DNA of 64,000 bases from Escherichia coli (lineage in GTDB: Bacteria > Pseudomonadota > Gammaproteobacteria > Enterobacterales > Enterobacteriaceae): assembly GCF_024298765.1 (NCBI RefSeq), contig NZ_CP101210.1; one strand, given 5' to 3'. The position numbers and the translations under genes are program-made. Below, piece after piece: positions 48,118 to 53,156 of the stretch (the stretch's first letter is position 1; each line of letters opens with the position of its first letter). The notes beneath the pieces were generated by a model. It was not told the DNA's origin. It saw only the letters and a list, made by a program, of their open reading frames with translations, and did no database searches.

Positions 48118-48129
48118 CCTCATTTGAAA

Positions 48130-48493
48130 TAAACTAATTTCACCTCCGTTTTCGCATTATATTTTCTAATGTCATGATTTTTTGATTTAGTGTTTTTTGA
48201 CATTTTTTTAGTTCTTAATATTGCATTAATCAAATTAACTTTCTCATCTGTTTATCTTTATATAGAGATTTGTTCATTTTTTGGTTTTTTATTCTGTTGC
48301 GATTTTTGCATTTTTTAACCATAAGCTAATGTGATGATCAATTTTACCTTATGGTTAACAGTCTGTTTCGGTGGTAAGTTCAGGCAAAAGAGAACGATTG
48401 CGTTGGGGACCGGGAGTGGCTCCGATGCTGGGTTTCGTGGTGATAATTTCGCCATGGAAAAGTTGTCAGCCCCGCTTATTCAATGAGGACAAG
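48130..48493 (+). promoter_or_regulatory. AT-rich gcvTHP promoter/control region
   Basis: About 360 bp of AT-rich sequence upstream of gcvT containing CTAAT...ATTAG-like motifs (e.g. ctaatgtcatgattttttgatttag at about 48166..48190) of the kind bound by GcvA; assignment from position and established gcv regulation. Confidence 0.4.
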
Positions 48494-49588
48494 ATGGCAC
48501 AACAGACTCCTTTGTACGAACAACACACGCTTTGCGGCGCTCGCATGGTGGATTTCCACGGCTGGATGATGCCGCTGCATTACGGTTCGCAAATCGACGA
48601 ACATCATGCGGTACGTACCGATGCCGGAATGTTTGATGTGTCACATATGACCATCGTCGATCTTCGCGGCAGCCGCACTCGGGAGTTTCTGCGTTATCTG
48701 CTGGCGAACGATGTGGCGAAACTCACCAAAAGCGGCAAAGCCCTTTACTCGGGGATGTTGAATGCCTCTGGCGGTGTGATAGATGACCTCATCGTCTACT
48801 ACTTTACTGAAGATTTCTTCCGCCTCGTTGTTAACTCCGCCACCCGCGAAAAAGACCTCTCCTGGATTACCCAACACGCTGAACCTTTCGGCATCGAAAT
48901 TACCGTTCGTGATGACCTTTCCATGATCGCCGTACAAGGGCCGAATGCGCAGGCAAAAGCTGCCACACTGTTTAATGACGCCCAGCGTCAGGCGGTGGAA
49001 GGGATGAAACCGTTCTTTGGCGTGCAGGCGGGCGATCTGTTTATTGCCACCACTGGTTATACCGGTGAAGCGGGCTATGAAATTGCGCTGCCCAATGAAA
49101 AAGCGGCGGATTTCTGGCGCGCGCTGGTGGAAGCGGGCGTTAAGCCATGCGGCCTGGGCGCGCGTGACACGCTGCGTCTGGAAGCGGGTATGAATCTTTA
49201 TAGTCAGGAGATGGACGAAACCATCTCTCCTTTAGCCGCCAATATGGGCTGGACTATCGCCTGGGAACCGGCAGATCGTGACTTCATCGGTCGTGAAGCC
49301 CTGGAAGTGCAGCGTGAGCATGGCACAGAAAAACTGGTTGGTCTGGTGATGACCGAAAAAGGCGTGCTGCGTAATGAACTGCCGGTACGCTTTACCGATG
49401 CGCAGGGCAACCAGCATGAAGGCATTATCACCAGCGGTACTTTCTCCCCGACGCTGGGTTACAGCATTGCGCTGGCGCGCGTGCCGGAAGGTATTGGTGA
49501 AACAGCGATTGTACAAATTCGCAACCGTGAAATGCCGGTTAAAGTGACGAAACCTGTTTTTGTGCGTAACGGTAAAGCCGTCGCGTGA
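48494..49588 (+). CDS. gcvT: Glycine cleavage T protein GcvT (364 aa)
   Basis: ORF 48371..49588 trimmed to [21 protein letters not shown]. Confidence 0.95.
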
Positions 49589-49611
49589 TTTACTTTTTTG
49601 GAGATTGATTG

Positions 49612-50001
49612 ATGAGCAACGTACCAGCAGAACTGAAATACAGCAAAGAACACGAATGGCTGCGTAAAGAAGCCGACGGCACTTACACCGTTGGTATCAC
49701 CGAACATGCCCAGGAGCTGTTAGGCGATATGGTGTTTGTTGACCTGCCGGAAGTGGGCGCAACGGTTAGCGCGGGCGATGACTGCGCGGTTGCCGAATCA
49801 GTAAAAGCGGCGTCAGACATTTATGCGCCAGTAAGCGGTGAAATCGTGGCGGTAAACGACGCACTGAGCGATTCCCCGGAACTGGTGAACAGCGAACCGT
49901 ATGCAGGCGGCTGGATCTTTAAAATCAAAGCCAGCGATGAAAGCGAACTGGAATCACTGCTGGATGCGACCGCATACGAAGCATTGTTAGAAGACGAGTA
50001 A
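49612..50001 (+). CDS. gcvH: Glycine cleavage H protein GcvH (129 aa)
   Basis: ORF 49609..50001 trimmed to [20 protein letters not shown]. Confidence 0.95.
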
Positions 50002-50119
50002 CGGCTTTATTCCTCTTCTGCGGGAGAGGATCAGGGTGAGGAACTTTTACGCCTCACCCTCACTCTCTTCGCAAGGAGAGAGGTTCACAATTCACTGCAC
50101 GTTTCAGGAACCATCGCTC

Positions 50120-52993
50120 ATGACACAGACGTTAAGCCAGCTTGAAAACAGCGGCGCTTTTATTGAACGCCATATCGGACCGGACGCCGCGCAACAGCAA
50201 GAAATGCTGAATGCCGTTGGCGCACAATCGTTAAACGCGCTGACCGGCCAGATTGTGCCGAAAGATATTCAGCTTGCGACCCCGCCGCAGGTTGGCGCAC
50301 CGGCGACCGAATACGCCGCGCTGGCGGAACTCAAGGCTATTGCCAGTCGCAATAAACGCTTCACGTCTTACATCGGCATGGGTTACACCGCCGTGCAGCT
50401 ACCGCCGGTTATTCTGCGTAACATGCTGGAAAATCCGGGCTGGTATACCGCGTATACTCCGTATCAACCTGAAGTCTCCCAGGGCCGCCTTGAAGCACTG
50501 CTCAACTTCCAGCAGGTAACGCTGGATTTGACCGGGCTGGATATGGCCTCTGCCTCTCTTCTGGACGAGGCCACTGCTGCCGCCGAAGCAATGGCGATGG
50601 CGAAACGCGTCAGCAAACTGAAAAATGCCAACCGCTTCTTCGTTGCTTCTGACGTTCATCCGCAAACGCTCGATGTGGTCCGTACTCGTGCTGAAACCTT
50701 TGGTTTTGAAGTGATTGTCGATGACGCGCAAAAAGTGCTCGACCATCAGGACGTCTTCGGCGTGCTGTTACAGCAGGTTGGCACAACCGGTGAAATCCAC
50801 GACTACACTGCGCTCATCAGCGAACTGAAATCACGCAAAATTGTGGTCAGTGTCGCCGCCGATATTATGGCGCTGGTGCTGTTAACTGCGCCGGGTAAAC
50901 AGGGCGCGGATATTGTCTTTGGTTCGGCGCAACGCTTCGGTGTGCCGATGGGCTACGGTGGCCCACACGCAGCATTCTTTGCGGCGAAAGATGAATACAA
51001 ACGCTCAATGCCGGGCCGTATTATCGGTGTATCGAAAGATGCAGCTGGCAATACCGCTCTGCGCATGGCGATGCAGACTCGCGAGCAACATATTCGCCGT
51101 GAGAAAGCGAACTCCAACATTTGTACTTCCCAGGTACTGCTGGCAAACATCGCCAGCCTGTATGCCGTTTATCACGGCCCGGTTGGCCTGAAACGTATCG
51201 CTAACCGCATCCACCGTCTGACCGATATCCTGGCGGCGGGCCTGCAACAAAAAGGTCTGAAACTGCGTCATGCGCACTATTTCGACACTTTGTGTGTGGA
51301 AGTGGCAGACAAGGCGGGCGTACTGGCGCGTGCCGAAGCGGCTGAAATCAACCTGCGTAGCGATATCCTGAACGCGGTTGGGATCACCCTTGATGAAACC
51401 ACCACGCGTGAAAACGTGATGCAGCTTTTCAGCGTACTGCTGGGGGATAACCACGGCCTGGACATCGACACGCTGGACAAAGACGTGGCTCACGACAGCC
51501 GCTCTATTCAGCCTGCGATGCTGCGCGACGACGAAATCCTCACCCATCCGGTGTTTAATCGCTACCACAGCGAAACCGAAATGATGCGCTATATGCACTC
51601 GCTGGAGCGTAAAGATCTGGCGCTGAATCAGGCGATGATCCCGCTGGGTTCCTGCACCATGAAACTGAACGCCGCCGCCGAGATGCTCCCAATCACCTGG
51701 CCGGAATTTGCCGAACTGCACCCGTTCTGCCCGCCGGAGCAGGCCGAAGGTTATCAGCAGATGATTGCGCAGCTGGCTGACTGGCTGGTGAAACTGACCG
51801 GTTACGACGCCGTTTGTATGCAGCCGAACTCTGGCGCACAGGGCGAATACGCGGGCCTGCTGGCGATTCGTCATTATCATGAAAGCCGCAACGAAGGGCA
51901 TCGTGATATCTGCCTGATCCCGGCTTCTGCGCACGGAACTAACCCCGCTTCTGCACATATGGCAGGAATGCAGGTGGTGGTTGTGGCGTGTGATAAAAAC
52001 GGCAACATCGATCTGACTGATCTGCGCGCGAAAGCGGAACAGGCGGGCGATAACCTCTCCTGTATCATGGTGACCTATCCTTCCACCCACGGCGTGTATG
52101 AAGAAACGATCCGTGAAGTGTGTGAAGTCGTGCATCAGTTCGGCGGTCAGGTTTACCTTGATGGCGCGAACATGAACGCCCAGGTCGGCATCACCTCACC
52201 GGGCTTTATTGGCGCGGACGTCTCGCACCTTAACCTGCATAAAACTTTCTGCATTCCGCACGGTGGCGGCGGCCCTGGTATGGGACCGATCGGCGTGAAA
52301 GCGCATCTGGCACCGTTTGTGCCAGGTCATAGCGTGGTACAAATTGAAGGCATGTTAACCCGTCAGGGCGCGGTTTCTGCGGCACCGTTCGGTAGCGCAT
52401 CCATTCTGCCAATCAGCTGGATGTACATCCGCATGATGGGCGCAGAAGGGCTGAAAAAAGCAAGCCAGGTGGCAATTCTTAACGCCAACTATATTGCCAG
52501 CCGCCTGCAGGATGCCTTCCCGGTGCTGTATACCGGTCGCGACGGTCGCGTGGCGCACGAATGTATTCTCGATATTCGCCCGCTGAAAGAAGAAACCGGC
52601 ATCAGCGAACTGGATATTGCCAAGCGTCTGATCGACTACGGTTTCCACGCGCCGACCATGTCGTTCCCGGTGGCGGGTACGCTGATGGTTGAACCGACTG
52701 AATCTGAAAGCAAAGTGGAACTGGATCGCTTTATCGACGCGATGCTGGCTATCCGCGCAGAAATTGACCAGGTGAAAGCCGGTGTCTGGCCGCTGGAAGA
52801 TAACCCGCTGGTGAACGCGCCGCACATTCAGAGCGAACTGGTCGCCGAGTGGGCGCATCCGTACAGCCGTGAAGTTGCGGTATTCCCGGCAGGCGTGGCA
52901 GACAAATACTGGCCGACAGTGAAACGTCTGGATGATGTTTACGGCGACCGTAACCTGTTCTGCTCCTGCGTACCGATTAGCGAATACCAGTAA
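50120..52993 (+). CDS. gcvP: Glycine dehydrogenase (decarboxylating) GcvP (957 aa)
   Basis: ORF 50036..52993 trimmed to [22 protein letters not shown]. Confidence 0.95.
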
Positions 52994-53015
52994 TTCACTG
53001 ATTCGACTATCTTCT

Positions 53016-53038
53016 AAAGGCGCTTCGGCGCCTTTTTA
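53016..53038 (+). terminator. Rho-independent terminator after gcvP
   Basis: aaaggcgcttcggcgccttttta. Confidence 0.6.
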
Positions 53039-53117
53039 GCTTGTTAATAAAGTGCGCTTTGTGTGTCGGATGAAGCGTAAATATAAACTCCTGGAGTTCA
53101 ATATATGACAGGAGCGC

Positions 53118-53147
53118 CAGGCCTGATGAGCGGGGCGCATCAGGCAC
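53118..53147. repeat. REP-like palindrome in the gcvP-bglA spacer
   Basis: gcctgatgagcggggcgcatcaggc. Confidence 0.45.
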
Positions 53148-53156
53148 ATCGGGTAA

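Follow-up and report, generated by a model that had tools for sequence, protein, structure and literature searches.

On sequence grounds, the three hairpins in the spacer between gcvH and gcvP of Escherichia coli are a degenerate, decayed head-to-head (inverted) dimer of the dispersed repeat called BoxC, PIT or TMECO, and not an RNA specific to the gcv operon. This decayed copy has probably been co-opted as an intra-operon 3'-end element. The explanation that best accounts for the evidence as a whole, and that we consider likely, is that the dimer forms the 3' end of a gcvTH transcript inside the operon and lowers gcvP relative to gcvT and gcvH.

The gcvH-gcvP spacer and its predicted fold

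The window, that is, the whole stretch of E. coli DNA that was analysed (64 kb), is 100% identical in this region to strains FDAARGOS_497 and UPEC69. An initial annotation of this DNA had described three back-to-back inverted repeats in the 118-nt spacer. All three are present and the coordinates were right, with tcctct/agagga at 50011-16 and 50025-30, gggtgagg/cctcaccc at 50034-41 and 50052-59, and ctctct/agagag at 50063-68 and 77-82. The features of the region are listed in Table 1.

Table 1. Features of the gcvH-gcvP region, in window positions; hairpins and their energies are predicted.
Feature	Position	Strand	Description
gcvH CDS (upstream cistron)	49612..50001	+	129 aa; ORF list and sequence, RefSeq annotation of identical strain
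gcvH-gcvP spacer	50002-50119		118 nt; gcvH stop at 50001, gcvP ATG at 50120
BoxC inverted dimer (degenerate)	50007..50085	+	unit 1 on + strand, ~50011-50042; unit 2 on - strand, ~50051-50083
Hairpin A	50011..50030	+	stem 50011-18 / 50023-30, 8 bp including one G.U; loop UGCG; -12.6 kcal/mol
Hairpin B	50033..50060	+	stem 50033-41 / 50052-60, 9 bp, G+C-rich; 10-nt loop; -15.7 kcal/mol
Hairpin A'	50063..50082	+	stem 50063-70 / 50075-82, 8 bp including one G.U; -12.2 kcal/mol
Term-seq 3' end equivalent	50064	+	U63 of spacer; RNA ends ...CCUCACCCUCACU-3', 4 nt past hairpin B
gcvP leader	50083..50119	+	TTCACAATTCACTGCACGTTTCAGGAACCATCGCTC; Shine-Dalgarno AGGA 50106-50109; outside repeat
gcvP CDS (downstream cistron)	50120..52993	+	ORF list and sequence, RefSeq annotation of identical strain

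Predicted folding supports the suggestion that the repeats form a structured RNA. The MFE structure of the spacer alone consists of exactly three adjacent hairpins, A, B and A', at -44.3 kcal/mol, with a z score of -4.26 against dinucleotide shuffles (mean -29.9 +/- 3.4), none of 200 shuffles being equally stable; with its flanks included, the spacer folds at a z score of -3.66. Of the three, hairpin B has the lowest energy and should be present in virtually all predicted structures, its in-context pair probability being ~1.0 as against ~0.74 each for A and A'. An alternative fold, in which the 3' arm of A and the 5' arm of A' pair as one long nested hairpin, takes up ~0.25 of the predicted ensemble. 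The motif GGGTGAGG-N10-CCTCACCC occurs once in the window and in none of 100 shuffles, and the loop of hairpin A' is of the GNRA type, GCAA in the window and GUAA in K-12.

The gcvP leader, downstream of the repeat, is invariant in the seven E. coli haplotypes described below, and its 3' part (~50091-50119, roughly 30 nt, ATTCACTGCACGTTTCAGGAACCATCGCTC) is nearly invariant across the spacers of Enterobacteriaceae. A weak hairpin predicted at ~50091-50110 in this leader overlaps the Shine-Dalgarno AGGA at 50106-50109, in a stretch so conserved that no covariation test is possible. Upstream of the operon, a small ORF lies on the minus strand at ~48120-48203, between ubiI and gcvT and opposite gcvT; it corresponds to yqfI in K-12 (27 aa) and is annotated as 'hypothetical protein' in the window-identical strain.

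Relation to the BoxC/PIT/TMECO repeat family

The BoxC / PIT / TMECO repeat was reportedly described by Bergler in 1992 and by Hoyne and Maher in 2000. A unit consists of a pyrimidine block, a loop, a purine block, three nucleotides (N3) and a second purine block; in an inverted pair, the first two blocks of each unit form the outer hairpins A and A', and the two third blocks pair together in the central and strongest hairpin, B. The gcvH-gcvP spacer carries one unit on each strand with the third blocks facing each other, as at five K-12 loci, whose inverted pairs adopt the same palindromic fold of three blocks. The spacer also aligns collinearly with the K-12 dimers at hrpB-mrcB, fepB-entC, gcvP-ygfF and alx-sstT and with Enterobacter dimers.

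A covariance model (R1) trained on five BoxC dimers from unrelated loci (hrpB-mrcB, fepB-entC, gcvP-ygfF, alx-sstT and flgG-flgH) scored 30.9 bits at 50007-50085 (E 2.2e-5), which was its sole significant match in the 64 kb, the next match being unrelated and having an E value of 2.2; when run in nine other species, the model matched the gcvH-gcvP spacer only. Likewise, the top two window matches of an nhmmer profile built from the 23 published K-12 TMECOs were the two halves of the spacer, in opposite orientation (50020-50041 on the + strand, E 0.012; 50083-50053 on the - strand, E 4.1).

The copy has departed considerably from the canonical repeat. There were no exact matches in the window to the strict TMECO consensus, CCCTCNCCC-N3-6-GGGNGAGGG-N3-GGGNGAGGG. 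The unit on the + strand reads TCCTCTTCT-GC-GGGAGAGGA-TCA-GGGTGAGGA and differs from the strict consensus at 5 of 27 specified positions; a rough gapless comparison of the blocks gave 18 mismatches in 54, a count inflated by a 1-nt register shift. Because it fails the strict consensus, the gcv copy is filed here as a decayed derivative and not as a canonical copy. The pairing of a type A with a type B loop found in K-12 dimers is absent from the gcv dimer, whose loops are TCA and TGA. A TTA loop is present in strain E21 and in a divergent Escherichia (L003), and the latter has an intermediate, more canonical form of the element with TTA/TAA linkers.

That the family is multi-copy, intergenic and dispersed was seen when the Enterobacter copy from the orthologous slot was used as the query: each E. 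coli genome had a median of 19 matches to it (maximum 34), and none of its listed top matches overlaps an annotated feature. A blastn search of 5,426 E. coli genomes with the gcv copy from E. coli returned a single copy, namely itself, a result that is misleading given how far this copy has decayed and how large the database is. The published K-12 list holds 23 strict TMECO copies, of which ten form five inverted pairs (Holder et al. 2015, PMC4666352); the gcv copy is not among the 23, the nearest entries being TMECO 10 and TMECO 11 just downstream of gcvP, and no repeat_region is annotated at the spacer in the K-12 RefSeq record. BoxC itself is known, and the recognition of this spacer as a decayed BoxC dimer is new relative to the literature examined.

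Several observations were made on other copies of the family. In K-12 (L001:403-668, minus strand), the gcvP terminator is followed by the canonical inverted dimer TMECO 10+11 and then by ygfF. In the window strain (52994-53156), the dimer and ygfF are both missing and gcvP is directly followed by bglA (minus strand), in keeping with reports that BoxC loci are unstable; the window strain has a REP-like palindrome, gcctgatgagcggggcgcatcaggc, at ~53121-53145. Some E. coli strains also have BoxC arrays in other intercistronic spacers, as in phnK-phnL of strain 2013C-4282 and in flgG-flgH of strain Z1323CEC0003, the latter being a 328-nt array of several BoxC units in both orientations.

An RNA 3' end at the base of the central hairpin

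A Term-seq 3' end, classed as 'orphan', is listed at K-12 position 3049097 on the minus strand (Adams et al. 2021, PMC7815308, Supplementary file 1). It was called in each of the three growth conditions, scoring 412,219, 171,112 and 34,570; the terminal terminator of gcvP has a score of 36,065 in the first condition and is uncalled in the other two (PMC7815308). The strongest score at 3049097 is ~11 times that of the gcvP terminator, on a scale of Term-seq scores that are not calibrated abundances, and the end ranks with the stronger mRNA ends listed in the vicinity. Checking the register of the printed 61-mers on the gcvP terminator fixed the 3' end at window position 50064, and the K-12 and window sequences are identical at the 3' end, with their differences confined to loops. 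Public Term-seq data thus place a mapped RNA 3' end at the base of a hairpin within the operon. The initial annotation had raised the possibility that the spacer sets the gcvP:gcvH ratio or is an RNase processing or protection site, and a strong, condition-independent 3' end 4 nt after hairpin B fits these proposals.

Neither a 3' end after hairpin A' nor a Rho-termination region at 30488xx-30491xx is listed in the Adams table (PMC7815308). No site in the spacer appeared among the sites listed in an RNase III data set, and gcv is not mentioned in the main text of the SMRT-Cappable-seq study.

The spacer is not the only place where a BoxC hairpin and an RNA 3' end coincide. At five other K-12 BoxC copies a Term-seq 3' end lies downstream of the BoxC hairpin, at 847200(-), 632098(+), 3781065(+), 3959467(-) and 4231270(-), with a distance of 3-4 nt at four of the copies and ~10 nt at 632098. 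The 3' ends themselves are in public tables; their coincidence with BoxC hairpins is new relative to the literature examined. ERIC copies in K-12 also have Term-seq 3' ends (127845+ and 3071314-). These individual sites, which carry no enrichment statistic, suggest that palindromic repeats of enterobacteria may be general markers of RNA 3' ends.

Two further Term-seq 3' ends were observed near the start of the operon, in coordinates carried over from K-12 on the assumption of no indels. One, an 'orphan', lies ~56 nt upstream of the gcvT start (window ~48438; K-12 3050723, minus strand), and the other is internal, 65 nt into gcvT (window ~48559; K-12 3050602, minus strand). Both score high (~80,000-105,000), which hints that transcripts may be terminated early or processed in the leader of gcvT.

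Other classes of element considered

The spacer does not belong to the other classes of element with which it was compared. A scan for terminators and promoters over 49400-50400 found nothing on the + strand. A canonical intrinsic terminator was rejected: the hairpins are present, there is no U-tract after any of them, and the tail after hairpin B reads CACUCUCUU. An internal promoter for gcvP is unsupported by the empty + strand scan. The spacer was also not recognised as a glycine riboswitch or other known structured RNA, the best Rfam match being whalefall-1 at 19.8 bits (E 0.14) against a gathering score of 37. Finally, the suggestion of a 'REP-like insertion' in the initial annotation was right in kind, the element being a palindromic repeat, but it is not REP itself: the REP/BIME consensus GCCGGATG...CTTATCCGGCCTAC is missing from the E. 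coli spacer, and is present in the spacers of Citrobacter and Lelliottia.

Variation within E. coli and between species

The element was found in 5425 of 5426 complete E. coli genomes, with 93.6-100% identity. Among seven sampled haplotypes, 5 of 22 unpaired positions are variable as against 1 of 50 paired positions (Fisher p = 0.009, in a small sample), and the sole change in a paired position converts a G.U pair to A-U. The allele of strain TW10590 diverges most among those seen in E. coli (93.6% identity): six nucleotides, CCTCAC, are tandemly duplicated in the 3' arm of its hairpin B (equivalent to window 50052-50059), so that its spacer measures 124 nt.

For comparison between species, gcvH loci were fetched from 80 GTDB species, a set that does not include Salmonella, Klebsiella or other Escherichia species, and their spacers were extracted; repeat types were assigned to each spacer by eye, the regex classification being crude. 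In 79 species, the median length of the gcvH-gcvP spacer is 113 nt, compared to 25 nt for the gcvT-gcvH spacer, which stays short and repeat-free. The gcvH-gcvP spacer is hypervariable, with lengths of 23-230 nt, but keeps a fixed 3' end, the gcvP leader. Of the gcvH-gcvP spacers, 77 are 40 nt or longer, and 70% of these fold at z < -2 (median -2.76).

The contents of this slot are BoxC, REP, ERIC or terminators made of a hairpin and a T-run. In Enterobacter and its relatives a clean A-B-A' module is present (CCCTCTCCC-loop-GGGAGAGGG, GGGGTGAGGG-loop-CCCTCACCCC, CCCTCTCCC-loop-GGGAGAGGG); REP/BIME units occur in the spacers of Citrobacter, Lelliottia and Kluyvera, and ERIC in those of C. youngae, Kluyvera and Serratia inhibens. 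In Dickeya, Serratia, Photorhabdus, Providencia and Pantoea the spacer has a terminator-like G+C hairpin with a T-run after it. In Dickeya dadantii, internal termination after gcvH has been measured at 71-76%, which its authors describe as in accordance with studies of E. coli (PMC9239193), and a measured internal termination site at this place likewise fits the proposals of a processing site and of a set gcvP:gcvH ratio. Unlike the other 76 species, Erwinia psidii, E. mallotivora and E. endophytica have a 23-nt spacer that is free of hairpins. The turnover of terminators, REP, ERIC and BoxC in a single operon slot is new relative to the literature examined.

Comparison of the pairing had been named as a check in the initial annotation. 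Pairing is retained across Escherichia and the Enterobacter-group species; in a family whose DNA is itself palindromic, this conservation alone is insufficient to prove selection at the RNA level. An RNAalifold analysis of 11 gcv-slot copies returned a nested consensus with nine 'compensatory' pairs, and these were not counted as RNA covariation, both for the same reason and because the MAFFT alignment was frame-shifted in the repetitive blocks.

Proposed mechanism and alternatives

In the mechanism that we propose, the decayed BoxC dimer would be transcribed within the gcvTHP mRNA, hairpin B would mark the major RNA 3' end 4 nt downstream, and gcvP would be reached solely by read-through transcripts. 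With the major 3' end after hairpin B, gcvT-gcvH transcripts would be expected to outnumber full-length gcvTHP transcripts, so that the level of gcvP would fall below those of gcvT and gcvH, and GcvP would be lowered relative to GcvH. The initial annotation had offered a set expression ratio, an RNase site and a repeat insertion as separate options; the evidence supports a combination of the three.

The 3' end may be formed by hairpin B in either of two ways. By the first route, non-canonical, partial termination would take place just past hairpin B and the tail would then be trimmed; by the second, an endonucleolytic cleavage would be followed by 3'-to-5' trimming that stalls at hairpin B. 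An event directly at the junction of B and A' is slightly favoured, because no 3' end is called after A', and non-canonical termination or cleavage at this junction followed by trimming to +4 appears to fit the data best. An exonuclease arriving from downstream would be expected to stall first at A', where no 3' end is listed, and this counts against the mechanism. The 23-nt, hairpin-free spacers of the three Erwinia species also count against it, in that the feature is dispensable in some lineages. In its summary of earlier work, PMC4666352 describes PIT elements as having neither promoter nor terminator activity and no effect in vivo; this, together with the missing U-tract, speaks against canonical termination. 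That neither a Rho region nor, among the sites listed, an RNase III site coincides with the 3' end also counts against the mechanism.

The main rival reading is a neutral one: a BoxC dimer would have come to rest in a permissive gap between constrained sequences and be decaying there as a relic, with the 3' end as the unselected by-product of a stable hairpin. The degeneracy of the copy, with its failure to match the strict TMECO consensus, speaks for such an origin, as do the 30 years in which no function has been demonstrated for the family. In other genera unrelated repeats sit in the slot, BoxC loci are known for their high variability (PMC4666352), and the canonical K-12 dimer after gcvP is simply missing in the window strain. 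Against a decaying relic, the element is fixed in E. coli, its variation is limited to the loops and the stems are retained, and the 3' end is strong and seen in every condition. A true terminator is retained at the same place in distant relatives, and the neighbouring gcvT-gcvH spacer has stayed short and free of repeats. On balance, a purely neutral relic is judged unlikely, although it is the alternative to be taken most seriously.

A role at the DNA level, in which an intrastrand triplex of the purine-rich strand (or a cruciform) stalls polymerases or promotes recombination and the RNA hairpins are incidental, appears highly improbable. Triplex formation by TMECO oligonucleotides has been seen in vitro, as has stalling of primer extension, and local variability is raised at TMECO loci (PMC4666352); the slot is, moreover, hypervariable between genera. 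However, in vivo DMS footprinting gave no support for a triplex even for canonical copies (PMC4666352), the locus is not variable within E. coli, and the broken G-runs of the gcv copy should weaken a triplex and leave Watson-Crick hairpins intact.

We give equally little credence to a dedicated riboregulator, in which a switch between the three-hairpin and nested folds, or the binding of a ligand, sRNA or protein, tunes read-through into gcvP: two competing folds are predicted (~0.74 and ~0.25), stable tetraloop types are present (GNRA in A', and UUCG in the A hairpins of L003 and Enterobacter), and the termination probability in Dickeya varies (71 +/- 22%, in which the authors could not separate noise from weak regulation; PMC9239193), but no Rfam family matches above its gathering score, ambiguity between two folds is automatic in every BoxC dimer, the sequence is a dispersed repeat that has been swapped for unrelated repeats in related genera, and the 3' end is present in all three growth conditions.

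The co-opted dimer thus stays the preferred reading. A bolder extension of it, which is put forward tentatively and towards which we lean to scepticism, is that BoxC/PIT/TMECO repeats may be modules that form or stabilise 3' ends at the RNA level, as REP does, and that terminators, REP, ERIC and BoxC may have been swapped repeatedly in the gcvH-gcvP slot under selection for less gcvP mRNA than gcvTH mRNA.

Significance and comparison with known systems

A conspicuous structure in a textbook operon is explained by these data as a domesticated or tolerated copy of a dispersed repeat, and not as a bespoke regulatory RNA. The explanation joins two bodies of public data that were unconnected in the literature examined, namely the BoxC/TMECO catalogue and the genome-wide maps of RNA 3' ends. 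If the hairpin is causal, the element would provide the first plausible cellular role for BoxC, a repeat to which no function has been assigned from 1992 onwards, and selfish palindromes and true terminators would appear as interchangeable parts that set the ratios of enzyme subunits within an operon. For annotation, catalogues that rely on a strict consensus overlook decayed, possibly functional copies.

The gcv copy shares with canonical BoxC/PIT/TMECO repeats the order of the blocks (a pyrimidine block, a short loop and two purine blocks 3 nt apart), the inverted-dimer layout seen at five K-12 loci and an intergenic location, and canonical copies hold the orthologous slot in Enterobacter species. 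It differs in its second loops, which are TCA and TGA in place of type A (TTA) or type B (CCG), and in its broken G-runs (GGGAGAGGA, GGGTGAGGA and TCCTCTTCT). The predicted folds differ as well, the gcv copy favouring three hairpins and canonical dimers one long nested hairpin. Two further differences from canonical BoxC are the position of the gcv copy within an operon and the very strong RNA 3' end found at it.

REP/BIME elements are intercistronic stabilisers of mRNA 3' ends, for example between malE and malF, with the upstream cistrons expressed above the downstream one. The gcv element is like them in being a palindromic repeat inside an operon with an RNA 3' end at the base of a hairpin; the exonuclease-barrier mechanism of REP/BIME is, for the gcv element, only a candidate. 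ERIC (IRU), another enterobacterial palindromic repeat, occupies the same spacer in Citrobacter youngae, Kluyvera and Serratia inhibens; it is ~127 bp long and has another consensus, and the E. coli spacer contains nothing like it. Another parallel is the internal, partial intrinsic terminator of Dickeya dadantii, which lies at the same position in the operon and yields gcvTH as well as read-through gcvTHP transcripts (PMC9239193); the E. coli element differs from it in having no T-run and in its origin as a dispersed repeat.
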